This document shows positions 240-14,572 of a DNA stretch of 16,470 nucleotides, piece after piece (the stretch's first letter is position 1; each line of letters starts with the position of its first letter). A model generated the notes under the pieces. It saw only the letters and a program-made list of their open reading frames with translations. It was not told the DNA's origin and searched no databases. The stretch comes from an uncultured archaeon (GTDB lineage Archaea > Asgardarchaeota > Lokiarchaeia > Sigyniarchaeales > SOKP01). The position numbers were made by a program, and so were the translations under genes. The DNA is taken from positions 1-16,470 of the forward strand of contig CAZOYD010000069.1 of the NCBI GenBank assembly GCA_964583985.1, read 5' to 3'.

Positions 240-623
240 AAAACATAATTGATAAAAACGGGGGTTTTCAATCATCCAATCCCATATTTATTGTTTTATT
301 TTATCAGGAAATTTCAGTGATGCTCGTTCTTACATAAAAGAGATCGAGAAATGTAATAAAATTCTACTATATTATGGATTAATACTTTATCCAATGCTTC
401 GATTAAGGACATGTATTCTGTTAAAGATACGGGTAATCGATCTTTTAAATAATAAAAGTAATCAATAAACATCTATAGTACTAGAGTAGGGGGCTAAATT
501 AATTAATTTTGATATTGAAAAAAATAAGTAATTGTGAGGGAAAAAAATTGGATACTGTCCCATTGTGAAAATTTACTTTCTTTAATGAAATATGGATATA
601 AAAAGATAAAAAAAATGAAAAAA

Positions 624-3600
624 TTAGGATGTTAGCTTAATTTTTCTCTTAAGTTTCGATTTTATGAGTAGAAAAGAGATTCCTAGTATTGTTAGAAGGA
701 TCAATGCTGAATCGTATCCCGGGATACCTGGTATTGCAACGGTTATCTCAACACAATTTGAGAGAGTATCTCCATTATTATTGTGTGCTACAACAATAAA
801 ATAATACGTTCCATCCACGTATCCACTCAATGCCCAAGTCAAATCGGTGATTTCATTTGCCAAGAGGGTAACACTTCCATCTATCACTGTAATAAAACTT
901 GAAGAACGATATACCGAGTAGTTATTTGCCTCAGATGCCGTCGTCCACGAGAGTTCAAAGATTCCATTATTATCAGGATTTCCCGCATTTGATGATAAGG
1001 TGAAATCTCCCGGTGGTGGTAGTTCTACGTTAATTTCAATGCAATTGGAAAGGGTATCGCCAGCATCATTGTGTGCTACTACAATAAAGTAATACGTTCC
1101 ATCATTGCATCCACTTAAGGCTAAGGTCAAATCGGTGATTTCATTTGCCAAGAGGGTAACACTTCCATCAATCACTGTAATGTAACTAGAAGAACGATAT
1201 ACCGAGTAATTATTTGCATAAGACGACGTAGTCCACGTGAGATCGAAGGCTCCATCATCATCAGGGGTTCCCGCATTTGATGATAAGGTGAAATTTCCTG
1301 GTGGTACATCAATGATGGTTAACATCGCGTTGGTATCGACAAAATTGAAGGCATAATTCATTGCTCCTGCGTCGTAAATAAATGTACCATTTAAGAGAAT
1401 TCCCGTACTCTGCTCATACCACACGATACCTCCTGGTTGAGTTAAATCTTCGAGTTCCCACACTCCAACGAGACCAAATCCGGGTAAGTCATACACTAAT
1501 TCTCTTGCGACATAAAAATCATGATCTCCTTCTCCATCAACAGCTATGGGGATCGTATCATAAAGAGATACATTCGTAAATATCCACCCCAGAGTATGAG
1601 CACCATCTCCAAACCCTGACCCACCTGACATTAATCTTGTTAAAGCATTCACGACCCATGTAGTTGACATATGAGATCCCATATATTCCTGCCCAAAAGA
1701 TTCATAATATAAATCACCTGTGAAAAGAGCATATGTAAAATTTGTATTAAAATAATAACCCATCCCTGAAACGGAATGTTTTATATACAATCCATCAAAT
1801 AATTGAGTTTCAACGACATTCACAATCTTAGTTTCTCTATTATTATCTATGGATGATTCAAGAGGTACAGGAAGAGCAAGAGCTGTAAAATTATAGGCCC
1901 TGTATTCGGTAGGTGTCCAGTCATATTCGATGGTTTGGTCCATTCCAACAGCGAGAGTAGGTACTGTAAGAGAATCAACTATAACATCATCGAGGTATAG
2001 ATACAATTCTACATCGACTTCAGGATTTAAACCTATATTTCGAACTGTAGCATTGATTTTATAGCTTGTATCGATTTCAAAACCAACGATAGGAAAGTCA
2101 AGATCCACTTCTAAATCATGATCCGGTGTAATTTCTACAACCACGGTTATACAGTTTGAAAGAGTATATCCATACTCATTGTTTGCAGTTACAATAAAGT
2201 AGTATGTTCCTTCTGTATAGGTACTTAGCACCAAGCTCAAGTCGGTAATTTCATCAGCTAAAACAGTCAAGCTTCCATTTATCTCAGTAATATAACTTGA
2301 ATGTTGATACACGGAATAATTATCTGCTCCATCAGCCAAAGTCCAGTTGAGAGCAAATACACCATCATCATCAGGACTCCCAGCATCAGATGATAATGTA
2401 AGGGAGCCTGGAGTTGCACGATAGATCGGATATGCACGGAATGAGCCCATTGCATTGTAAGGAACTCCTTGAATCTCATTCAGATCAACGTAGATTATTT
2501 TAGGGTGATAGAGAGGAGCATGGAATTGATTTCGTGCCAAGTATCCTTGAATGTTTTGATAGATAATGTTTCTGGCTAATTCATCAGTTTCTGCCAAAGC
2601 TGCGACTATCAAAGCATTTAAGTGTGCATCATCAACTTGAGCTGAGTTAGCACTGGATGCTGGGTTAAATATTGGGTTAATCATATTGTATGGATCAAGA
2701 TAATCTGGACTCCATCCAATAATGAATATACCTAAGTGATCATGATCAGCAAATAAGTAATTAAGGAATTCTTGATAAGTTACTCCATCATCCACCACAT
2801 TAATACCGATGAGCTTAAACCATTCCGTAACTGCAACTTGAAAGTCTTCTCTAAATGTATTTCCAAAATTATAGGTGTGCGGAACTGTCAGGAATGGAGA
2901 GCTTCCTTCTGCTACGGCAATCCATTGTGCATCTGTGGTGAATCCAACACCAAATCCCATCGACTGCATGTATGATCGTGCTAAGCTAAGGTCATAAGCA
3001 AGAGGGACGATAGATGCGTTGAATGAAGCACCAAAACCGGGTGAAATAGCCGAGACAGCTCTAATAGAATCCCCTAATCTTAAAACATCAATTACATAAG
3101 AATAGTTAATTGCATTAGCCATTGCCAATCTCCAAGTTTCATTATACTTTTCATTGTTGAATCCTAGATAATAATATATTAGACTTGGTCTACCAGTGTC
3201 CTCAGTGAATCTCTTCACCTTGATATTGGGATCCGCATCGTATAGAGGAATGTATATAGACGCAATCATATCTTCTAATATATCAATTTCATAAGCGAGC
3301 ATCGCATTATGAGCAGTAGTAAAATCATTAAAAATTACAAATACCATATCTTCAAAATACGCTGGTCCTTTCCAGTAATTATCCCATCGACTAAATTTTA
3401 CTTCTACCCCTGGATTAAAATAATCATAAGTAAATGGTCCTGTTCCTATTGGATGACCTGTTGTGAGGTCAATGAAGGTTGTTGCTTCAGCCGCATGAGC
3501 GGTTGGAGAAATCATGCCCGCGTTAATATAAGATAGAGTGCTTAAGAAAGGAGAATAAGGAGCGTTGAGAGTAATTGTGAGGTTAGAATTTCCAACTGTC

Positions 3601-4136
3601 GCGACGTTATTAATTATGGGAGTTACTCCATCAGGGAGCATCCACAAGGATTGAGTTTGAGCGACTGTACCAGTATTAGTACCAGTACAATTTGTAAGGT
3701 ATAATAACCTATCAAGATTCCATTTTGCTGCTGTTGCATTAAATGGAGTTCCATCATGGAAAAGAATACCTTCCCTAAGATGTATTGAAAGATGGGTACT
3801 ATCTATCCAATGAAAGGAATGAGCAAGTTGGTTAATTCGAGGTAAATTTTCATCTGTTAAATTGTAAAAAAACAGGGTTTCAACCACTTGTTCTAATACA
3901 TCATTTGACCCACTATCCCACGCCTCAACAAGCTCTAAAGTAAATGGACCCGAACTTTTTCCCACTTTGAGAGTCAAAGGATCAGCTCCAATACTGGAGG
4001 TTAAGAAGGTTACTGTTTGATCCGTAATACGAGTAGTTTTTTCAGTATTTAAACGCATTGATGTGAGGTTATAAATATTGAAACATAACAAAAAAATCAT
4101 TAAAAATATAAATAACTTAGTAAATTTATCTTTCAT
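624..4136 (-). CDS. Cell-surface ABC-type family 5 (OppA/DppA-like) solute-binding protein fused to three ~96-aa Ig/FN3-like repeats, a CARDB-like domain and a C-terminal IPGY sorting/membrane anchor
   Basis: N-terminal signal peptide. SBP_bac_5 motifs LREGILFHDGTPFNATA, PIGTGPF, YLGFN and IGWSPDYLDP. CARDB-like INATVRNIG...NN. C-terminus IPGYDSALILLTILGISFLLIKSKLKRK. Confidence 0.9.
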   Translation of the reverse strand: MKDKFTKLFIFLMIFLLCFNIYNLTSMRLNTEKTTRITDQTVTFLTSSIGADPLTLKVGKSSGPFTLELVEAWDSGSNDVLEQVVETLFFYNLTDENLPRINQLAHSFHWIDSTHLSIHLREGILFHDGTPFNATAAKWNLDRLLYLTNCTGTNTGTVAQTQSLWMLPDGVTPIINNVATVGNSNLTITLNAPYSPFLSTLSYINAGMISPTAHAAEATTFIDLTTGHPIGTGPFTYDYFNPGVEVKFSRWDNYWKGPAYFEDMVFVIFNDFTTAHNAMLAYEIDILEDMIASIYIPLYDADPNIKVKRFTEDTGRPSLIYYYLGFNNEKYNETWRLAMANAINYSYVIDVLRLGDSIRAVSAISPGFGASFNASIVPLAYDLSLARSYMQSMGFGVGFTTDAQWIAVAEGSSPFLTVPHTYNFGNTFREDFQVAVTEWFKLIGINVVDDGVTYQEFLNYLFADHDHLGIFIIGWSPDYLDPYNMINPIFNPASSANSAQVDDAHLNALIVAALAETDELARNIIYQNIQGYLARNQFHAPLYHPKIIYVDLNEIQGVPYNAMGSFRAYPIYRATPGSLTLSSDAGSPDDDGVFALNWTLADGADNYSVYQHSSYITEINGSLTVLADEITDLSLVLSTYTEGTYYFIVTANNEYGYTLSNCITVVVEITPDHDLEVDLDFPIVGFEIDTSYKINATVRNIGLNPEVDVELYLYLDDVIVDSLTVPTLAVGMDQTIEYDWTPTEYRAYNFTALALPVPLESSIDNNRETKIVNVVETQLFDGLYIKHSVSGMGYYFNTNFTYALFTGDLYYESFGQEYMGSHMSTTWVVNALTRLMSGGSGFGDGAHTLGWIFTNVSLYDTIPIAVDGEGDHDFYVARELVYDLPGFGLVGVWELEDLTQPGGIVWYEQSTGILLNGTFIYDAGAMNYAFNFVDTNAMLTIIDVPPGNFTLSSNAGTPDDDGAFDLTWTTSSYANNYSVYRSSSYITVIDGSVTLLANEITDLTLALSGCNDGTYYFIVVAHNDAGDTLSNCIEINVELPPPGDFTLSSNAGNPDNNGIFELSWTTASEANNYSVYRSSSFITVIDGSVTLLANEITDLTWALSGYVDGTYYFIVVAHNNNGDTLSNCVEITVAIPGIPGYDSALILLTILGISFLLIKSKLKRKIKLTS
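740..1305 (-). repeat. Tandem intragenic 288-bp (96-aa) repeat units 2 and 3 of the SBP
   Basis: Identical stretch GTCAAATCGGTGATTTCATTTGCCAAGAGGGTAACACTTCCATC at about 838 and 1126 (offset 288). Protein repeat PPG.FTLSSNAG.PD..G.F.L.WT....A.NYSVY...GTYYFIVVAHN..GDTLSNC. Confidence 0.9.
2130..2412 (-). repeat. Intragenic repeat unit 1, a more diverged copy of the 96-aa domain
   Basis: PGSLTLSSDAGSPDDDGVFALNWT...NYSVY...LADEITDL...GTYYFIVTANN...TLSNCI aligns with units 2 and 3. Confidence 0.85.
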
Positions 4137-4302
4137 GATTTAACACTGACTAAAATTTTTAATTAAAATATTGGATTAATATAATTTTATAAAATACTCA
4201 TATATAAACTTTTTTTGAATCAAGGTAAATATTGCTTAAACAATAATTCAACATTTCCATATCGTACTAATTTTATTTAATATAAAATGGGTAAATTAGA
4301 AA
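4137..4302 (-). promoter_or_regulatory. Promoter region of the SBP gene (copy B), with TATA-like element at 4201-4211
   Basis: Minus-strand AAAAAAAGTTTATATA (BRE/TATA-like) about 65 nt upstream of the ATG. Blocks are conserved with 12-239. Confidence 0.6.
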
Positions 4303-4535
4303 GGATTAGAATTGCATTTTTTCTAAAAATGTAAAGAAAGGTCAATCATATCAGATATTTTCCATCACAAAGAATGATTGATACTTCGCCAATAAATCTA
4401 ACAATTCTTCAATGATTTTGAATACCTTCATCATTTGATCCCAAATATCTTAATAATATTCATCCTAAATAAATTCGCAACCAATTTGAAAAAAATGACT
4501 CTGAAAATATAGGTGAAAAGATAAGATAAAATTAA

Positions 4536-4673
4536 TTAAGTTGGAAACTTGATTTTCTCAAGAGCTACTTCTAAATCTTTCTCTTTCTTTAATAATACTC
4601 CAAGAAATGGTATATCTTTTCTAAATTCTTCAATAGAAATTCCGCTTTTAAGCAAGACACCTATCCAATCGAG
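4536..4673 (-). pseudogene. Start-less duplicate of the last 45 codons plus stop of the MoxR ATPase gene
   Basis: Translates to LDWIGVLLKSGISIEEFRKDIPFLGVLLKKEKDLEVALEKIKFPT*, versus LDWISVLLKSGITIEELKQGIPFLGVLLKKEKDLEIALEKIKFPS* in the gene (37/45 identical by hand). It is in frame, three codons after the gene's TAA. Confidence 0.9.
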
Positions 4674-4682
4674 ATTGTGATG

Positions 4683-5537
4683 TTAGGAAGGGAATTTGAT
4701 TTTTTCTAAAGCAATTTCAAGATCCTTTTCCTTTTTAAGTAGTACTCCTAAAAATGGTATGCCTTGCTTCAATTCTTCAATTGTTATACCACTTTTTAAT
4801 AGTACAGATATCCAATCCAAAATTTCAGAAGTTGATGGCATTTTTCTTATTTTAGTGATAGCCCTGAGAGCATAGAAGTGTTTTAAGCATTGATCTAATA
4901 AATTTTGCTTTAAATTAGGATAATGGAGATTACAAATTTCAGTCATGAACTCTTTTGATGGGAATTCAATCCAGTGAAATACACATCTACGTAAAAAAGC
5001 ATCTGGAAGTTCTTTTTCATTATTTGAAGTAATGATAACGATAGGACGCGTTTTTGCTTTAATTGTCTCTTTAGTTTCTTTTACATAAAATTCCATCACA
5101 TCTAACTCTTGTAAAAGATCGTTGGGAAACTCAATATCTGCTTTATCTACCTCATCAATAAGAAGAACGACTTGCTCATCAGAATCAAAAGCTTCTCCTA
5201 AAGGTCCGAGAGTGATGTAATCTTTTACATTATCAACGTTTCGATCTTCACTCCCAAATCGACTATCATTTAATCTTTGGACTGTATCGTACATGTAACA
5301 CCCATCTATTGCTTCTGTGGTGCTCTTTATATTCCATGTAATAAGTTTTTTTCCCAAGGATTCGGCAATTGCATGAGATAAAAGCGTTTTTCCAGTACCG
5401 GGTTCACCTTTAACTAATAAAGGTCGAGCTAATGCAATAGAAACATTAACAATATTTCGAAGTTGAGGATCGGCGATGTATTTAATCCTATCTGTATTTA
5501 CATCGCCTTTAAACTTATTAAACCCATCATTATTCAT
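4683..5537 (-). CDS. MoxR-family AAA+ ATPase (CoxD/AAA_5-like)
   Basis: Walker A GEPGTGKT, Walker B VLLIDEVDKAD, FPNDLL, and IITSNNEKELPDAFLRRC. Confidence 0.92.
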   Translation of the reverse strand: MNNDGFNKFKGDVNTDRIKYIADPQLRNIVNVSIALARPLLVKGEPGTGKTLLSHAIAESLGKKLITWNIKSTTEAIDGCYMYDTVQRLNDSRFGSEDRNVDNVKDYITLGPLGEAFDSDEQVVLLIDEVDKADIEFPNDLLQELDVMEFYVKETKETIKAKTRPIVIITSNNEKELPDAFLRRCVFHWIEFPSKEFMTEICNLHYPNLKQNLLDQCLKHFYALRAITKIRKMPSTSEILDWISVLLKSGITIEELKQGIPFLGVLLKKEKDLEIALEKIKFPS

Positions 5538-5640
5538 AATTAAATGAATTAATTAGGAATTAAATAATTTTTGACTACAAGAAAAAGAATTATTAATAAT
5601 TTATAAAAGAAAATAAAATTGGATTTTTGCTATATTGGGT

Positions 5641-6207
5641 TTAGGCTATTTTGGCAATCGTAAAAAAGTTATGTGCTCCTCCAGGGAATATGTTTCTTGT
5701 TGTGTGTGCATAATTATATTGGTATATTAATATACTAAGAGATTCACCTTCTGCGAAATTAAAATTATTCGTTAGAGCGACCCCAAATGTATTAGTAGTG
5801 TTACTTGCAGTAAATGATCTGGAACAAAGTATAATAGCATTACTGAGAAGTTGTATTATAAAAAAATCCCCATCAACTGCTTCTATGCTATATTGTGTTG
5901 TTACTTGATAAATTCCCGGTTCATGAATCGTATAGGAATCAGATGTGAGATTAAAAGCATCACGATTATCATCACTTATTTGATTATAGTTGAATGTTTG
6001 GGATGATTGATAGGGTATTGAATATGTAGACGTACTATCATAATACACACTTGCCATTGGCGGAACATATGAAGTTATCTCATTGATATGAGCATTCAGA
6101 GCATTAATATAATTATTCATGAAAACGAATGAATAGACTCCTAAGGCGACACTTGCTAACGCAATTATTAGGGATACAACTCCTAACATATTTCTTCCTT
6201 TACTCAA
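5641..6207 (-). CDS. Membrane-anchored protein with a C1q/TNF-like jelly-roll domain (start TTG 6207 or ATG 6189)
   Basis: N-terminal TM helix, short amphipathic stalk (YINALNAHINEI), then F.Y....DNRDAFNLTSDSYTIHEPGIYQV...GESLSILIYQ...NFFTIAKI, which matches the C1q-type pattern. Confidence 0.65.
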   Translation of the reverse strand: MSKGRNMLGVVSLIIALASVALGVYSFVFMNNYINALNAHINEITSYVPPMASVYYDSTSTYSIPYQSSQTFNYNQISDDNRDAFNLTSDSYTIHEPGIYQVTTQYSIEAVDGDFFIIQLLSNAIILCSRSFTASNTTNTFGVALTNNFNFAEGESLSILIYQYNYAHTTRNIFPGGAHNFFTIAKIA

Positions 6208-6585
6208 TTTAAATTTACGTTTTTGGTAAAAATTATATTAGTCTTAATAGAACTAATTTAATATTTATAGCTTTTGATATGTCCATTAGATTTTTTAGGA
6301 TGATATTCTTCACAAAATTCAGCATTTTCTAAAACCTCTTTTTTATTACGATTATTTCCATGCTCCAGAATATAATTATTAAAATCTAATATATAAAGAA
6401 AGAAAATGCAAAAAAATTGGATTTATTCATAAGTAAGTCTTAGGTTCTTTTCACAATCGCAAAATGAAACCTTAGTTCATGAATTATAATTAGAAAATTT
6501 AAGTAAAACTTTGAATCATATAATTCATAACTTTATTTAATCAAAAGAAAAATAAGTTCATATACAAGTAGTAAAGTGAATATAA

Positions 6586-6960
6586 ATGACAAATGAAGAT
6601 GAGATGTTAGGAGAATTAAAAAAAATTCGAGAATTACTGACCCCGCCACCAGCACCACCTAAAGAAAAACCAAAAAACTTGGCAATGGAATTCTTGGATT
6701 TCATAAAAAAATATAAAGTTCTGGGTCTTGCCTCAGCATTTATAATCGGTCTTGCTGTAAATGCACTAATCCTTTCCTTAGCTCAAGATATAATAACCCC
6801 AATAATCGGACTCTTTATACCAGGATTTACTACTATTGCAGATTTCAAACTTGGTGTATTTGGGATCGGAAATTTCATAGCAGCATTCATTAATTTTATA
6901 ATAATAGCGTTTATAGTGTTCCTTATCATAAAATTAGCGTCAAGGATAGGACTTGATTAA
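6586..6960 (+). CDS. mscL: Large-conductance mechanosensitive channel MscL family protein
   Basis: EFLDFIKKYKVLGLASAFIIGLAVNALILSLAQDIITPII (S1/TM1) and GNFIAAFINFIIIAFIVFLIIK (TM2). Confidence 0.9.
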   Translation: MTNEDEMLGELKKIRELLTPPPAPPKEKPKNLAMEFLDFIKKYKVLGLASAFIIGLAVNALILSLAQDIITPIIGLFIPGFTTIADFKLGVFGIGNFIAAFINFIIIAFIVFLIIKLASRIGLD

Positions 6961-7153
6961 GTTATTTTTAAAAGATTAAATAATAATTTTTTTTCTATTT
7001 TTGTTATAAACCTTCTGTTTAATGAAAACCATCTAGAAGCTTTTTTAAAAGTAACAATAAACGATAATATTTAACATAGAATTCAACGTTTTGTTGAGAT
7101 TAATTTTTTTCAAATATTAACGACAGCTAAAAATATTTGATATTTAAAATTAA

Positions 7154-8782
7154 TCATAAAGAATCATCTAAGATCTCAATTTGAAAGATTTTGGAGTCGT
7201 TCCAAGTTTCACAAGTTCTATAGATCCCCCACAGATAACTTCCATCCCAAGACATGCCTACACATCCTCCTGCTACGTCATATATCCTTCCTACTATATC
7301 CCCCGTCTTTGTCCAGGCAATAAGCCTGTTTCCTGCACTTGACCAGAAATGAGTGCCATTCCAAGTGAATGGACTATACAAGTCTATCCCAATCAAGTTG
7401 GTTGTCCCGTGGATAGTCCCATTTTTGTACAATTCAAATAATTTAGACCCTGCTCTATTGGTAATGTAAAGATATGTACCATCAGTTGCTAAACCTTGAC
7501 GTCCACCAGTTTCTTGTTCGGGAATCGGAAAGGAGTCATGAATGGTCACGGCAGTATCATTAACTGAAAATTTAACGATTTTTAAAAGCGAATGATCTTG
7601 AGCCCAAAAATACTCTCCATCATAACATAATCCTCTTGGTCCGAATAATTGGGAAGTATCGATTGAATATTCCGTATAATTTGAGGTTATGGGATCTATT
7701 TTGAGTAATTTACCCGTCTCTAATTTCCAAATATACCCATTAGCATATTCTAATGCCCAACCAAACCCTAAACCTTGACCTATTCTTCTATTTACACGTC
7801 TAGTTTCATCAATGGGATCATACACATATATGAATTGATCTTCGGGATCTCCTGGAGTATAACCTAAATTACTATGTTTGATATCTTGAAAACCAACGTC
7901 GGGTATGGGAACAAAATCTTCACCAAAATCATTATTAACACTAATAAGAGTGCTTGAATTTTGGAGTGCAAGTATGGCAGTAGCGTTATCGAAACCATCA
8001 AATTTGTTCCAAGTAACAGTTGCATTTGCATTACCAGCAACTTGCACCGCCGTTAAATCGGTATTGTTATAATTATAAAAGTAATTACCTTCAAGTGTTA
8101 CGTTAGAATCGAAAACTATGAATGGAAAATGACCCCCAGCAAAGATGTTATTGCGAATTTCTACATCATAATTATATTGCTCAAGAGCTATTTCATGATA
8201 CCCATTTTGATAGAGCAAGTTATATTCAATAAGGGGAGCCGATCTTTCCATATAGATCCCCTCGCTATTTATCCATCTCACAATTGAATGGCTTATGTTT
8301 GCTTTGGAATCAAATTGAGCAATTCCCAAATTGGCATATTCCACAATAACATAATTGAAAAATGAAGTATTAGTTCTATACAATTCTATTCCCCCCCAAT
8401 CACCATTGATTGGATTATCGGAATCAGAAGTAAACCATATTTGTTTCGTTGATGTACCATTAGCAATTAACGTACCCTCGACTACAGCAAACCCTATGTA
8501 TTGCAAGGATTTATAATCTCGACATGGCTTGAAATTAATTTGAGTCCCTGGTAGTATCGTTAAGGTAACCCCTTTCGGTACCAATATGCTTTCATTTACA
8601 AAAATGTTACCAGTCCACGTTTCATCTTGAGTAACGGTCCCTCCCTTGAAAATGGGGTTAATATCGGTATTTTTATCTTCCGGAAATATAAGAAAGTAAA
8701 CCAAAATAGAAGTGCTCACAATAATGCCAATAAATATTATGGATATCAATATTTTTTTACTAAATGGTAATCTAAACAACAT
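7154..8782 (-). CDS. Membrane-anchored extracellular protein with a right-handed parallel beta-helix and a C-terminal beta-propeller
   Basis: N-terminal TM. VPKGVTLTILPGT...GTLIANGT....IWFTS...WGGI beta-helix entry motif and Asn-rich repeats. Propeller repeats GLCYDGEYFW, GLATDGTYLY, FTWNGTHFW and GMSWDGSYLW. Confidence 0.8.
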   Translation of the reverse strand: MLFRLPFSKKILISIIFIGIIVSTSILVYFLIFPEDKNTDINPIFKGGTVTQDETWTGNIFVNESILVPKGVTLTILPGTQINFKPCRDYKSLQYIGFAVVEGTLIANGTSTKQIWFTSDSDNPINGDWGGIELYRTNTSFFNYVIVEYANLGIAQFDSKANISHSIVRWINSEGIYMERSAPLIEYNLLYQNGYHEIALEQYNYDVEIRNNIFAGGHFPFIVFDSNVTLEGNYFYNYNNTDLTAVQVAGNANATVTWNKFDGFDNATAILALQNSSTLISVNNDFGEDFVPIPDVGFQDIKHSNLGYTPGDPEDQFIYVYDPIDETRRVNRRIGQGLGFGWALEYANGYIWKLETGKLLKIDPITSNYTEYSIDTSQLFGPRGLCYDGEYFWAQDHSLLKIVKFSVNDTAVTIHDSFPIPEQETGGRQGLATDGTYLYITNRAGSKLFELYKNGTIHGTTNLIGIDLYSPFTWNGTHFWSSAGNRLIAWTKTGDIVGRIYDVAGGCVGMSWDGSYLWGIYRTCETWNDSKIFQIEILDDSL

Positions 8783-9045: not shown

Positions 9046-10149
9046 ATGCCGAACATTACGTCTCTAATATCTCAAAGAATTAAACCATCTTGTGCGGTAT
9101 GGGAAATCACGCTAAAATGTAATAGTAATTGCATCCATTGTGGATCAAAGGCGGGAAAATCTCGAATTGATGAACTCAATACCGAAGAATCTTTAAATTT
9201 AGTAAGAGAGATCCGTGATTGTGGTTATAAAGGAATCGCTTTGATGGGAGGAGAACCATTAATTAGGAGCGATTGGTATGATATTGCGAGAGAAATTAAA
9301 AAAAATAAGTTAGAATTATCAATTGTTACAAATGGACTGACTTTACTTGATAACATCAAAGAAATAAAAAGTCTAAAAGCTGACTGTGTATCGCTAAGTT
9401 TGGATGGTGGATCGGCTAAAGTCCACGATTATCTCAGAGGCATACCAGGGGCATTTGACAAAACATTAAATGCAATAACCCGGTTAAAAGAAGAAAAAAT
9501 ACCAGTCAGTGTTATTACAGCGGTAAGTAAAACTAATCTAAATGAATTAAATAAGATAAAAAAAATATTATTAGATCGAAATATTGCGTGGCAAATCCAG
9601 ATGGCAATCCCTATTGGACGCTTTCCAAGAGAATTAACGATTTCGAGGGAAGAATTTTACACTGTAGCATTATTCATTGCTATAAATGTCAAAAAGTATA
9701 CGTATAAACGATTACCAGTTATTGGGGCCCATTGTCTCGGTCATTTTTCAAGATTTATGCCAAATTTGGGGTTGGATCCATGGGTGGGATGCCAAGCTGG
9801 GTTATCAGTTTTAGGTATTCAGAGTAATGGAAACATAAAAGGATGTTTAACACTTCCTGATGGATTTATCGAAGGAAATATTAGAACGCAGAGCTTAAAA
9901 ACGATTTTGGAAAAGATAAGGTTAAAAAAAATAAAATTAAAAGGTTATTGCACAGATTGTGATATGGCAAGAATATGTCGGGGAGGATGTTTGGGATCAG
10001 CTTTAGCATTAAATGAATTTGATGAACCTTATTGTCTAAGAGCGATTGAAAATAATTTGTTTTCCTCGAAGCAGTTACCAATTAAAGGGAAATTGGATTC
10101 CACAATTTCAATATTAAAAAATATGTATCATAACTTAATATTCAAATAA
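9046..10149 (+). CDS. Radical SAM/SPASM domain protein (putative peptide or protein maturase)
   Basis: CNSNCIHC (CxxxCxxC), GGEP, VTNG and VSLSLDG. SPASM cysteines CQAG...GNIKGC...CTDCDMARICRGGC...YC. Confidence 0.93.
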   Translation: MPNITSLISQRIKPSCAVWEITLKCNSNCIHCGSKAGKSRIDELNTEESLNLVREIRDCGYKGIALMGGEPLIRSDWYDIAREIKKNKLELSIVTNGLTLLDNIKEIKSLKADCVSLSLDGGSAKVHDYLRGIPGAFDKTLNAITRLKEEKIPVSVITAVSKTNLNELNKIKKILLDRNIAWQIQMAIPIGRFPRELTISREEFYTVALFIAINVKKYTYKRLPVIGAHCLGHFSRFMPNLGLDPWVGCQAGLSVLGIQSNGNIKGCLTLPDGFIEGNIRTQSLKTILEKIRLKKIKLKGYCTDCDMARICRGGCLGSALALNEFDEPYCLRAIENNLFSSKQLPIKGKLDSTISILKNMYHNLIFK

Positions 10150-10183
10150 ATTAACTATAAAATTTAATGGAGATATCTTTGAA

Positions 10184-10432
10184 ATGTTTGAAAATATTAT
10201 TCAATTGAATAAAATCGGTAAAGAATTAGGTTTAAGTAAGAAAGAAATTAATAAAGTACTTTTATTTGACAATAGCAGGCATCCCTCATTATATAAAATC
10301 CTGATGATAATAATATTTGTTTTTGTGGGAGTTATCGTTATTATCTTAGGAATTGAAGCTTCAAGACATATTTATCCTGCTGGAACATTATATTCAACGG
10401 TAAAAATAAAGGATTTTAAAAGTAAAAAATAA
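10184..10432 (+). CDS. Small single-TM protein, paralog 1 (candidate radical SAM substrate/precursor)
   Basis: 82 aa, GGAG upstream. Shares IGKELGLSKKE and YxxGTxYSTVKxKD with the next two ORFs. Confidence 0.85.
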   Translation: MFENIIQLNKIGKELGLSKKEINKVLLFDNSRHPSLYKILMIIIFVFVGVIVIILGIEASRHIYPAGTLYSTVKIKDFKSKK

Positions 10433-10467
10433 GTGATAAATTTTAAATTGGGGTGAATATTGAGAAG

Positions 10468-10752
10468 ATGATGAAAGATATAATTCTGCTGTTTACGATC
10501 GGTAAAGAGTTGGGATTAAGCAAAAAAGAGATTAATAAATTACTGTTATTTGACAATAGTAAACATGCTTTATTATACACAAGTCTATTGAGAATAGCAT
10601 TTATCTTTTTTGGCGTCTTGATAATAATATTAGGAATAGGAGCCTCTAGAAATACTTATGCAGCGGGAACTTACTATTCTACTGTAAAAATAAAGGATTA
10701 TCACAAAAAAAAATGTTTAAATTTCAATAAGGAAGGAATATTGAGAAAATGA
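10468..10752 (+). CDS. Small single-TM protein, paralog 2 (start revised from GTG 10453 to ATG 10468; 12-aa C-terminal extension)
   Basis: From ATG 10468 it aligns without gaps to paralogs 1 and 3. The upstream GAATATTGAGAARATGATGAAAGAT is shared with paralog 3. Confidence 0.85.
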   Translation: MMKDIILLFTIGKELGLSKKEINKLLLFDNSKHALLYTSLLRIAFIFFGVLIIILGIGASRNTYAAGTYYSTVKIKDYHKKKCLNFNKEGILRK

Positions 10753-10997
10753 TGAAAGATTTGATCCAGCTATATGAAATCGGGAAAGAATTAGGATTAT
10801 CGAAAAAAGAAATGAACACGGTTTTATTCCATAATAATAATAAGAATAGAGTCATATTTCTGATTATTTTCATTATACTTTTCTCAAGTGTAGGTTATCT
10901 TTTGGTGTTCATTATTGAAACGGCGATATCTAACACCTATCCTAGTGGAACAAGATATTCAACTGTAAAATTAAAAGATTATTATAGAAAAAAATGA
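10749..10997 (+). CDS. Small single-TM protein, paralog 3
   Basis: 82 aa with the same motifs. ATGA overlaps with both neighbouring genes. Confidence 0.85.
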   Translation: MMKDLIQLYEIGKELGLSKKEMNTVLFHNNNKNRVIFLIIFIILFSSVGYLLVFIIETAISNTYPSGTRYSTVKLKDYYRKK

Positions 10998-12292
10998 AAC
11001 TGAATATTGGTTGCGGAAAAAAATACGATCCCAATTATTGTAATATTGATTTATATGAAGATTTAGTGGCTGATAGGTTGATGTCAGCGCTTAACCTTGA
11101 ATTTGATGACAATTCGTGTGATGAAATAAAAGCGATCCATGTGATTGAACACTTAAATTTTTTTGAAGCTATTTATGCTCTCAGTGATTTTTTTAGGGTA
11201 CTGGAACCTAATGGAAAATTAATCCTTGAAACACCTGATCTTGAGAAAGCGTGCCAGCATTATTTAAAAGCAAATGAAGAACAGAAAAAAGAGATATTAG
11301 GTTGGTTATATGGAATACCTCATAAAGGTTTACAGCATAAATTATGTTTTCCCCCGTTCCTCTTAATCGAATTATTAGAAAATACAGGATTCGAAAATAT
11401 TACAACCTCTAATTTTTATAACGTTGAGGATATTCCCTCAGTTCGATTTGAATGTTATAAATGTAGGAATGGTAATGAATTTGAAGTGTTTCAAATTATT
11501 TCTAAACTCCGTAAGGAGCTCCGCTTAAACAATCAAATAGATTTTACTGATTCTTTCATTACTAAAGAGCAAGAAGATCTTGTATCTTTCATAGCATTAA
11601 AGCTACTTGGGTTTAAAAAAAAACAAAAAAAAGAGTTAAAACAGGAACTTTTTGTCGATTTGTTGTTTAAATGGCCTGAAGTCGTTAGCACCTTATTATC
11701 AGTTATCCAAAATGAGATTTATATCTCTCAAGTGGAATACTTACACATTAAAGAAATATCGGATCTTTTGGTCAAATATAATATCGTAAATATACTTTTT
11801 AATTCAATAACTAAAGGACCTTTAAATCCCGGATTGCAAAGAATTGTCTTTTTTTCAGTAGAATCGTTTGCGAGGAAATTAATAGAAAATCTTTTGAATT
11901 CTGTTGAAAATCGGGAAAATCTCATTGAAAACCTTAAAATGCTACATGATTCTCCTAAAGATTTTAATAATAAAATATTCTCAGCCAACTTAATTGAGAG
12001 AAAAGCGTTAGACTTTTATTATCTCGGAATTAAATCTTATCATCAAAAAAATTATAATTATGCTCATAATTTATTTTTGCGAGCGATTAAATTAAATCGA
12101 GATAATTATTTATTTTTCTGGAATTTAAGTAAAACATTAGCAAGATTAAAATCATATAATCAATCAGAAAAAATATACAAGAAGACATTACGTCTAATAA
12201 AAATGACTGACATTAAAAATAAACAAGATTTAAAATCGCAAATCCAACAGGAATTAAATTGGATCAAAAAACGGATGGAAAATAAGCCTTAA
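10994..12292 (+). CDS. Class I SAM-dependent methyltransferase-like domain (Methyltransf_11-like) fused to a helical middle region and C-terminal TPR repeats
   Basis: KLNIGCG motif I, NIDL, DEIKAIHVIEHL and RVLEPNGKLILETPD. TPR-like FYYLGIKSYHQKNYNYAHNLFLRAIKLN and FFWNLSKTLARLKSYNQSEKIYKKTL. Confidence 0.85.
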   Translation: MKLNIGCGKKYDPNYCNIDLYEDLVADRLMSALNLEFDDNSCDEIKAIHVIEHLNFFEAIYALSDFFRVLEPNGKLILETPDLEKACQHYLKANEEQKKEILGWLYGIPHKGLQHKLCFPPFLLIELLENTGFENITTSNFYNVEDIPSVRFECYKCRNGNEFEVFQIISKLRKELRLNNQIDFTDSFITKEQEDLVSFIALKLLGFKKKQKKELKQELFVDLLFKWPEVVSTLLSVIQNEIYISQVEYLHIKEISDLLVKYNIVNILFNSITKGPLNPGLQRIVFFSVESFARKLIENLLNSVENRENLIENLKMLHDSPKDFNNKIFSANLIERKALDFYYLGIKSYHQKNYNYAHNLFLRAIKLNRDNYLFFWNLSKTLARLKSYNQSEKIYKKTLRLIKMTDIKNKQDLKSQIQQELNWIKKRMENKP

Positions 12293-12682: not shown

Positions 12683-13204
12683 ATGTATGACGCGATTTTT
12701 AAAACTGTCATTTTTGGGGACGCAGGTTCTGGTAAGACAACTCTAACTAAACGTTTTGTTACCGATTTCTTTATACCTGATTCTCACATGACTATAGGAG
12801 TGGAATTTGAAACTAAAATTGTCGAAATCGATGATATACGAGTTAAATTAATGATATGGGATTTTGGTGGTGAAGAACGATTTCGATTTATCTTTCCCCA
12901 ATATATCCAAGGAGCCATGGGAGGAATTTTAATGTGTGATATCACAGATTATTCTTCTTTTTCTCATACTATTGATTGGTTATCAGTCATGAATGGCGAA
13001 AAAGAGCGTTTCCCTATCTTATTACTCGGAGGTAAAAAGGATTTAAATGAATCCCGAGATATCTCTTTTAATGAGGGAAAACAACTTGCAAACTCAATAG
13101 GTCTAAATAAATATATTGAATGTTCCAGCAAAACCGGTGAGAATGTCGAAATATCGTTTGAAGTGTTAACGAGAATAATGGTTAACAAAATGAGAGAAGA
13201 GTGA
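12683..13204 (+). CDS. Rab/Ras-superfamily small GTPase, paralog 1
   Basis: G1 GDAGSGKT, G2 TIGVEF, G3 WDFGGEERF, G4 variant GGKKD, G5 CSSK. No C-terminal prenylation cysteines. Confidence 0.95.
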   Translation: MYDAIFKTVIFGDAGSGKTTLTKRFVTDFFIPDSHMTIGVEFETKIVEIDDIRVKLMIWDFGGEERFRFIFPQYIQGAMGGILMCDITDYSSFSHTIDWLSVMNGEKERFPILLLGGKKDLNESRDISFNEGKQLANSIGLNKYIECSSKTGENVEISFEVLTRIMVNKMREE

Positions 13205-14053: not shown

Positions 14054-14572
14054 ATGTATGACTTGATTTTTAAAATCGTTATTTGCGGAGACGCGGGTTG
14101 TGGTAAAACAACTTTAAATAAGCGTTTTATTAAAGATTTATTTCTCCCCGATTCTCACATGACTATAGGGGTAGAATTTGAAACTAAAATCATCGAAGTC
14201 GATGAAAAACGCGTTAATCTCATGATCTGGGATTTTGGTGGTGAAGAACGATTTCGAACATTATTTCCTCAATATATCCAAGGAGCCATGGGAGGAATTT
14301 TAATGTATGATATTACGGATTATTCCTCATTTTCCCATATTAGTGATTGGCTCTCAATTTTACAGGAAAACAAAAAAAATATCCCCATCTTATTACTAGG
14401 TGGTAAATTAGATTTAGAACAATCTAGAGCAATTTCTTTTAAAGAAGCTAAACGACTTGCGGAATCAATGGGCTTGAATAACATCATGGAATGTTCCAGT
14501 AAAACCGGTGAAAATGTGGAAAGTTCATTTAAAGAATTAACGAGAATGATTATCCATAATTTGAAGAAATGA
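14054..14572 (+). CDS. Rab/Ras-superfamily small GTPase, paralog 2 (about 71% aa identical to paralog 1 by hand count)
   Basis: G1 GDAGCGKT, G2 TIGVEF, G3 WDFGGEERF, G4 variant GGKLD, G5 CSSK. Confidence 0.95.
   Translation: MYDLIFKIVICGDAGCGKTTLNKRFIKDLFLPDSHMTIGVEFETKIIEVDEKRVNLMIWDFGGEERFRTLFPQYIQGAMGGILMYDITDYSSFSHISDWLSILQENKKNIPILLLGGKLDLEQSRAISFKEAKRLAESMGLNNIMECSSKTGENVESSFKELTRMIIHNLKK

Follow-up and report, generated by a model that had tools for sequence, protein, structure and literature searches.

Three small genes encoding similar peptides lie between the genes for a radical SAM enzyme and a methyltransferase in the 16.5-kb contig analysed here (the window, which is the entire contig and part of a 3.8-Mb genome). 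Each peptide has a conserved N-terminal region, a hydrophobic segment and a conserved Tyr-rich tail, which raises the question of whether the peptides are substrates of the two enzymes or have another role at the membrane. The explanation that we consider probable is that they are precursors of the RiPP type made up of a leader, a membrane helix and a core: the leader would dock, two enzymes would modify the core, and insertion into the membrane would follow. The plan assigned to the peptides within this probable explanation is tripartite, with a two-helix leader (residues ~1–30), a membrane helix (~36–57) and a 15-residue core (Y64–F78) followed by a short basic follower. Linkage of the genes, conservation across the family, repetition of cassettes in relatives and a charge bias around the helix are all observed.

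The gene cluster and its surroundings

The cluster comprises five genes on the forward strand. The first encodes a 367-aa radical SAM/SPASM enzyme, the putative maturase (coordinates 9046–10149; Pfam Radical_SAM, 3.5e-26, plus SPASM), and is followed by the genes for the candidate precursor peptides P0001 (10184–10432; 82 aa), P0002 (10468–10752; 94 aa) and P0003 (10749–10997; 82 aa). The last encodes the second putative tailoring enzyme, a 432-aa methyltransferase whose C-terminal half is helical/TPR-like (10994–12292; Pfam Methyltransf_23/11 and a weak match to TPR_2). Spacers of 34 bp and 35 bp separate the radical SAM gene from P0001 and P0001 from the ATG of P0002 at 10468, and the last two junctions (P0002/P0003 and P0003/methyltransferase) are ATGA overlaps. 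Given these short gaps and overlaps, the five genes look like one operon.

A gene for an MscL-family channel is located at 6586–6960 in the window, and 7 of the 17 genus loci have a gene of this family only a few kb from the cluster (the others are L017, L019, L020, L023, L027 and L029), which may be plain synteny. Two paralogous Ras/Rab-like small GTPase genes are located 3' of the cluster (12683–13204 and 14054–14572; Pfam Ras, 8e-42); such GTPases are typical of Asgard archaea. In three related loci (L019, coordinates 9333–11537; L020, 1875–4073; L022, 9830–12028), the gene directly downstream of the methyltransferase gene encodes a protein of ~730 aa that combines leucine-rich repeats with a TIR domain.

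The three peptides belong to a narrow family

In P0001, which was delineated from its ORF translation, alignment and an AF2 model, the predicted leader corresponds to residues 1–33 (10184–10282), the membrane helix to about residues 36–57 (10289–10354) and the core cassette to Y64–F78 (10373–10417), after which comes the follower KSKK. P0002 follows the same plan, with its predicted core at Y64–Y78 (10657–10701), and the core of P0003 would likewise span Y64–Y78 (10938–10982).

The preliminary description, made from the sequence of the window, had presented the peptides as gap-free, with an invariant leader, a variable helix and an invariant tail, and the ORFs and translations were found to be as given there. 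The three align without gaps over 82 residues, over which the other two copies share 67% and 48% identity with P0001. All of the invariant positions listed earlier are present (I11–E21, N23, N30, F45, G49 and A59, and in the tail Y64, G67, T68, Y70–K74, K76 and D77), position 69 is L, Y or R, and the aligned 82 residues contain no Cys. The absence of gaps is limited to these three copies, as family-wide there are indels in the hydrophobic segment and in the linker before Y64. The length of 82 aa given for all three peptides stood for P0001 and P0003 but not for P0002, which has 94 aa (99 aa if started from the GTG at 10453). Its 12 extra C-terminal residues, CLNFNKEGILRK, hold its sole Cys and are translated spacer, because the TGA that ends the orthologues has been replaced here. 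The run AAAAAAAAATGA closes the gene in P0002 orthologues (window 10702–10752 region), while the reading of P0002 continues to a TGA overlapping the next start codon.

A profile built from the three peptides matched 280 proteins at E<=0.01 among 5.8 billion, so that the similarity of the three is far beyond chance. Only 85 matches at E<=0.001 came from a profile search that covered 1.84 billion cluster representatives exhaustively, and the family is thus narrow in sequence space but deep. No Pfam or NCBIfam family was found for the three peptides, the sole match being to DUF1189 (E=0.0047), under its cut-off. The AF2 model of the peptide has helices at residues 2–14 and 19–26 and one long helix at 34–60, with the tail as low-confidence coil.

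In homologue alignments, Y64, G67, Y70, S71, D77 and F78 are near-invariant, and the helix and linker are variable. The earlier proposal that the Tyr-rich tail is the core was supported, with Y64 kept in 43 and Y70 in 44 of 45 cluster representatives, and both residues are also conserved in relatives from Thorarchaeota, Thermoplasmatota and bacteria. An N-x-T sequon for N-glycosylation precedes Y64 in only some members.

Linkage of the peptides with the two enzymes

The gene order radical SAM, one to three peptides, methyltransferase-TPR was found in all 17 genus loci, with varying flanking genes. Peptides and methyltransferase occur in the identical 20 of 35 congeneric genomes, and the radical SAM gene is also present in these 20 save where contig ends truncate it. 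Phylum-wide, a match was found in 80 of 399 genomes, representing 9 of 85 genera.

When species genomes were searched with an alignment of the enzyme, the radical SAM clade was also found, at 43–50% identity, in Thorarchaeota, Thermoplasmatota, Elusimicrobia, Geobacteraceae and Smithellaceae. Among 80 such loci, 68 include a match to the peptide profile and 60 a methyltransferase homologue, and enzyme, methyltransferase and peptides were found together in Promethearchaeota, Thorarchaeota, Thermoplasmatota, Elusimicrobia and Desulfobacterota. Leader, Tyr cassette and the two enzymes therefore travel together. Across the 17 archaeal loci from the genus, no gene for a protease or an exporter is conserved.

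About eight related loci carry a divergent fourth peptide of 89–102 aa with the same plan, which is translationally coupled to a protein of ~200 aa that has five hydrophobic segments and belongs to no Pfam family (examples are L017, coordinates 3159–4046; L018, 4952–5848; L019, 4067–5007; and L021, 8482–9375). A search of the window's own genome did not find this 5-TM partner protein.

Precursor forms in relatives

The 15-residue consensus of the cassette is Y-x-x-G-T-x-Y-[GS]-T-[VI]-x-x-K-D-[FL], and the copy in the window (Y64–F78) is followed by K-x-K-K. Several of the 85 representatives are soluble, with the same head (consensus IYKIGKxLGLxKKDI) followed by one to six tandem cassettes of the form Y-K-A-G-T-x-Y-G-T-[VI]-S-P-K-[DE]-[LF], which repeat with a period of exactly 15 residues, the last cassette forming the C-terminus of the protein. 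As judged from sequence, this combination of a head with tandem cassettes matches the classical organisation of RiPP precursors that have multiple cores. In the locus that encodes a six-cassette precursor (L039, coordinates 263–5801), the adjoining radical SAM/SPASM enzyme is 47% identical to that in the window. This locus also includes genes for a second radical SAM/SPASM enzyme (41% identity), a B12-binding radical SAM enzyme, an alpha/beta-hydrolase of the proline iminopeptidase family and a CPBP protease of the Rce1-like type, so that its set of genes for tailoring and processing is more complete than those of loci encoding the membrane form; no homologue of the methyltransferase-TPR protein was found in it.

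In Thorarchaeota, a leader and a helix precede a core of the form TYxPGTxY[GA]SIxPKDF, and the forms in Thermoplasmatota are mostly soluble. The bacterial form has a leader (KLYEIGAKTGLxxKE), a hydrophobic segment, a long linker and a core (GYPCGTRY[FYA]TVSxKDF), and its hydrophobic segment ends in a lipobox (LLAC, FSSC, VMGC or LSAC) or an AxA site (SAHA|G or ANA|A). The hydrophobic segment thus appears, from these comparisons, to be an optional yet common module between leader and core. An NCBIfam search with the soluble, Thorarchaeota and bacterial precursors gave nothing relevant, and these forms hence belong to no curated precursor family of that library.

More distant systems in Loki genomes, with radical SAM enzymes 38–45% and methyltransferases 25–34% identical to those in the window, have tandem proteins of 145–165 aa adjoining the two enzyme genes (L034, coordinates 6524–8092; L035, 5910–6929; L036, 3762–4709; L038, 354–1882; L125, 466–903; L130, 2543–2977). 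These proteins combine several hydrophobic segments with a leader-like head (KIDxIGxKLxV), a loop with GYPF or HYPF and a tail of the form Y-x-V-Y-[DK]; they may be substrates that are membrane proteins in their entirety. With their multiple segments they resemble membrane proteins more than they do RiPP precursors of the classical type, which counts against the RiPP reading. A further distant Loki-class locus (L033, coordinates 5521–6034, reverse strand) encodes three tandem soluble peptides of 46–65 aa between the methyltransferase and radical SAM genes. KGYP[FY] is located close to their N-termini and P-x-Y-G-V-Y close to their C-termini; a leader-like head and a helix are both absent.

These forms also bear on whether the peptides are substrates at all. 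They could instead be small membrane subunits that tether or regulate the radical SAM enzyme and the methyltransferase, with a tail conserved for structural reasons. A single membrane helix, several paralogues per locus, a head predicted to bind the enzyme and the pairing of the divergent copy with a 5-TM protein would all suit such a role. However, relatives that are soluble, lack the helix and have up to six tail cassettes make no sense for an anchor, bacterial relatives place a signal-peptidase site between head and tail, and the tail was modelled as low-confidence coil. We therefore regard this alternative as very improbable and prefer the reading of the peptides as precursors.

Predicted docking of the leader on the radical SAM enzyme

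A complex of the radical SAM enzyme and the peptide, both supplied as alignments, was modelled with an ipSAE of 0.63 (0.61–0.67 in three runs), compared with 0.00 for the best of three controls. Of 80 solved complexes, 58 attain this mark, as do 2 of 110 mismatched pairs; these counts apply only roughly to the present model, because it was built from our own alignments. The runs share at least 78% of contacts, and the pLDDT of the partner is at least 65. All confident contacts of the peptide are in residues 1–26 and involve mostly the invariant I11, G12, E14–L17, E21, I22, V25 and L26. The predicted docking surface on the enzyme (residues 165–169, 202–213, 217, 237–238 and 338–344) sits between the radical SAM core and the SPASM domain, and the contacted residues Y205, F210 and I211 are invariant or nearly so in an alignment of 24 homologues. 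The core was not confidently placed in the active site in this model.

The modelled complex supports the predicted binding of the leader to the radical SAM enzyme. It also agrees with the view of the preliminary description that the N-terminus is a maturase-binding leader, since the model docks only residues 1–26 and the same head precedes the cassettes in the soluble relatives. The enzyme lacks an RRE domain at its N-terminus, and a PqqD-like gene was not found nearby. For binary spliceases, both modelling and tests of direct docking of a leader helix on the enzyme have been reported (PMC11414181).

The enzymes and their possible chemistry

The CxxxCxxC motif of the radical SAM enzyme and its SPASM cysteines (C249, C267, C302, C305, C311, C315 and C330) are invariant in 24 homologues. 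Its best NCBIfam scores were with TIGR04103 (200.9 bits; cut-off 725), which we take to be the same family as IPR026482, and TIGR03913 (170.3 bits; cut-off 592), and the enzymes of the relatives score 174–230 bits with TIGR04103 and about equally with TIGR03913. As all scores are under the cut-offs, the enzyme belongs to no curated family. Identity with TIGR04133 ('rSAM_w_lipo') was considered for the window enzyme (156.6 bits) and for the bacterial relatives with a lipobox (119–142 bits), and was rejected in both cases against a cut-off of 425. A search of PDB sequences with the radical SAM enzyme returned only the generic SPASM enzymes SkfB, BlsE and PqqE.

Chemistry of the sacti- or ranthipeptide type had been judged unlikely, and this remains so as the core has no Cys, which leaves thioether chemistry out. 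PlpX spliceases belong to IPR026482 (PMC11002830), and a splicease-like radical SAM enzyme could in principle excise a tyramine unit at Tyr70. TIGR04103 is the top-scoring curated family for the window enzyme, but with a score far under the cut-off, and with TIGR03913 scoring about the same in relatives. Residues 69–71 of the window peptides are L-Y-S, Y-Y-S and R-Y-S; the variable residue before Tyr70 is like the X of XYG, but there is no X-Tyr-Gly. Gly follows the second Tyr in 34 of 44 soluble cassettes, which suits excision, compared with 12 of 66 membrane-form cassettes, and the residue is F, Y or A in the bacterial relatives, so that the family as a whole is not restricted to small residues after Tyr. 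The distant Loki locus with three small peptides ending in xYGVY and the docking of the leader helix that is modelled here, as in the binary spliceases (PMC11414181), also point towards excision. However, it would leave the second invariant Tyr, G67 and T68 unexplained, and we consider it rather unlikely; another Tyr-directed reaction, for example a crosslink, is at least as likely.

In the AF2 model of the methyltransferase (pLDDT 90.8), residues 1–156 form an intact class I fold in which the G-x-G motif and conserved acidic residues are present. Residues 161–426 are all-helical, and this part may hold the peptide. Only generic SAM-dependent methyltransferases were found in a Foldseek search with this model, and a PDB sequence search gave nothing useful.

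The membrane helix, its topology and Ala59

The uncharged stretch is 19–38 residues long (mean 24) in 60 helix-bearing representatives and 19–27 residues long in the window peptides, and follows a head of 33–38 residues. In a classical Sec signal peptide, the charged n-region is short and the h-region covers about 7–15 residues. With 19–38 residues after a head of ~35, the helix is thus likely to be an anchor rather than a classical signal peptide. In the 60 representatives, K and R residues within 15 residues of the helix average 3.72 on the N-terminal side and 1.05 on the C-terminal side, and this bias predicts that the leader is inside the cell and the core outside. Positive-inside counts give an N-in/C-out orientation in 58 of the 60, in line with the earlier suggestion that the helix serves as an export device. 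A C-in topology was rejected, as it would place the enzyme-docking leader outside the cell and contradicts the charge bias. The follower is strongly basic (KSKK, with longer basic tails in relatives) and suits an exported tail poorly, which counts against the leading explanation.

The preliminary description went further and took the hydrophobic segment as a cleavable signal peptide, cut after Ala59 so that a soluble modified peptide of ~23 residues is released outside the cell. Several features fit this proposal. The -3/-1 rule is satisfied by P0001 (IEA|S) and P0002 (IGA|S), 109 of the 120 closest homologues share Ala59, the predicted topology is N-in/C-out, bacterial relatives have a lipobox or AxA right after the hydrophobic segment, and the archaeal loci have no conserved protease or exporter gene. 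However, P0003 has Glu at -3, Ala59 is kept in just 4 of 45 representatives of 50%-identity clusters, and the linker that joins the helix to Y64 has no common motif and a length of anywhere from about 3 to 16 residues, so that a conserved signal-peptidase site is unsupported for the archaeal family. The long uncharged stretch behind its long head, and the helix running continuously through residues 34–60 in the AF2 model, also speak against a cleavable signal. Release at Ala59 is therefore improbable as an account of the window peptides, though P0001 and P0002 may still be cut there. A precursor that brings its own export device is nevertheless well supported as a general idea, and the bacterial relatives, to go by their sequences, clearly join the leader to a cleavable or lipid-anchoring signal.

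In P0001 and P0003 the helix ends about 25 residues before the C-terminus. When a helix is that near the C-terminus, translation ends before it leaves the ribosome, and membrane insertion would thus follow translation, leaving a time window for a cytoplasmic Fe-S enzyme. ArsA/Get3-family genes are present in the genome, but the family is also found in every control genome.

Proposed pathway

In the pathway that we favour, the leader would dock directly on the adjacent radical SAM/SPASM enzyme, as modelled, without a separate recognition domain. The radical SAM enzyme and the co-transcribed methyltransferase would then modify the core in the cytoplasm, the target most likely being one or both of the near-invariant tyrosines. 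P0001 and P0003 would be completed before the helix leaves the ribosome, so that insertion would come after translation and allow time for modification. The helix would insert with the leader inside and the modified core outside, and the product would either stay tethered to the membrane or be freed by a lineage-specific cut. We infer the modification of the core, the order in which it precedes insertion and the final location. The pathway calls for a cytoplasmic Fe-S enzyme to act on a segment bound for the outside, hence modification must precede insertion, and this counts against the leading explanation.

Significance of the gene cluster

Judging by the literature that could be searched, the system is a variant of RiPP-like biosynthesis that had not been described. 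In that literature, which lies outside one survey reporting archaeal spliceotide clusters, no description was found of this peptide family, of TIGR04103 or of Asgard RiPPs with a leader-TM-core plan. To our knowledge, RiPP precursors are almost always soluble, with a leader and then a core, and are exported by dedicated transporters. Here a helix or signal sequence is located between leader and core and is conserved together with two enzymes in two domains of life, and neither the peptides nor the enzyme clade are covered by any curated model.

We tentatively propose a wider reading, in which these systems could represent a cross-domain class of ribosomal peptides, with a folded leader fused upstream of a Sec-type signal or anchor, and with a radical SAM/SPASM clade and a methyltransferase that perform an undescribed Tyr-directed modification of the cassette YxxGTxY[GS]T[VI]xxKD[FL]. 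The hosts would be Asgard archaea, Thermoplasmatota, Elusimicrobia and Desulfobacterota. If this is true, a single polypeptide encodes an order in which modification comes first and export or display second. Should the core be both modified and displayed outside, the cluster would represent a new way of placing a chemically altered peptide on the cell surface of the Asgard archaea, which are the closest archaeal relatives of eukaryotes, and a new radical SAM reaction on tyrosine may be involved. The soluble multi-cassette relatives offer an easy way into heterologous reconstitution.

Comparison with known systems

The preliminary description called a precursor with its own export helix unusual. 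This needs to be qualified, as RiPP precursors with Sec signal peptides are known, namely those of the bufferins and other MNIO-modified RiPPs, some members of which are predicted to be membrane-anchored lipoproteins (PMC12452194). Because such a precursor has its own export signal, it must be modified in the cytoplasm before export (PMC12452194). The peptides described here would likewise bring their own export signal. However, the MNIO systems use an MNIO and a DUF2063 partner rather than a radical SAM enzyme, and their chemistry is Cys-based. In addition, a bufferin uses its signal peptide as the leader; in the peptides described here, the helix is preceded by a leader that is separate and folded.

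In the mycofactocin (MftA/MftC) and PQQ (PqqA/PqqE) systems, SPASM radical SAM enzymes act on a conserved Tyr of a short peptide, and both families were among the matches, the window enzyme scoring 112 bits with the MftC model (cut-off 265). The window peptides differ in having neither a C-terminal GVY nor E-x3-Y and in being putative membrane-anchored precursors, and the locus has no PqqD/MftB-like RRE gene. With tail-anchored proteins, P0001 and P0003 share a single helix within ~25 residues of the C-terminus and an N-terminal part that is predicted to be cytoplasmic, a likeness that is a functional analogy only.

The spliceotide systems (PlpX/PcpX with PlpY, and the binary RhaX/RhaA, RcsX and RasX) also combine a radical SAM/SPASM enzyme with Tyr-containing precursor motifs, and the residue before the target Tyr is variable both there and here. 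Spliceotides are recognised by loss of the tyramine unit, about 135.06 Da, from the precursor (PMC11626197), and archaeal spliceotide clusters have been reported by a survey that is cited there as reference 37. TIGR04103 is the top-scoring family here, yet at 200.9 versus 725 bits, and the cores in the window have Y-S, not Y-G. Further differences from the spliceotide systems are the membrane helix that separates the leader from the core, a second Tyr that is invariant, the conserved methyltransferase-TPR partner and the archaeal hosts.
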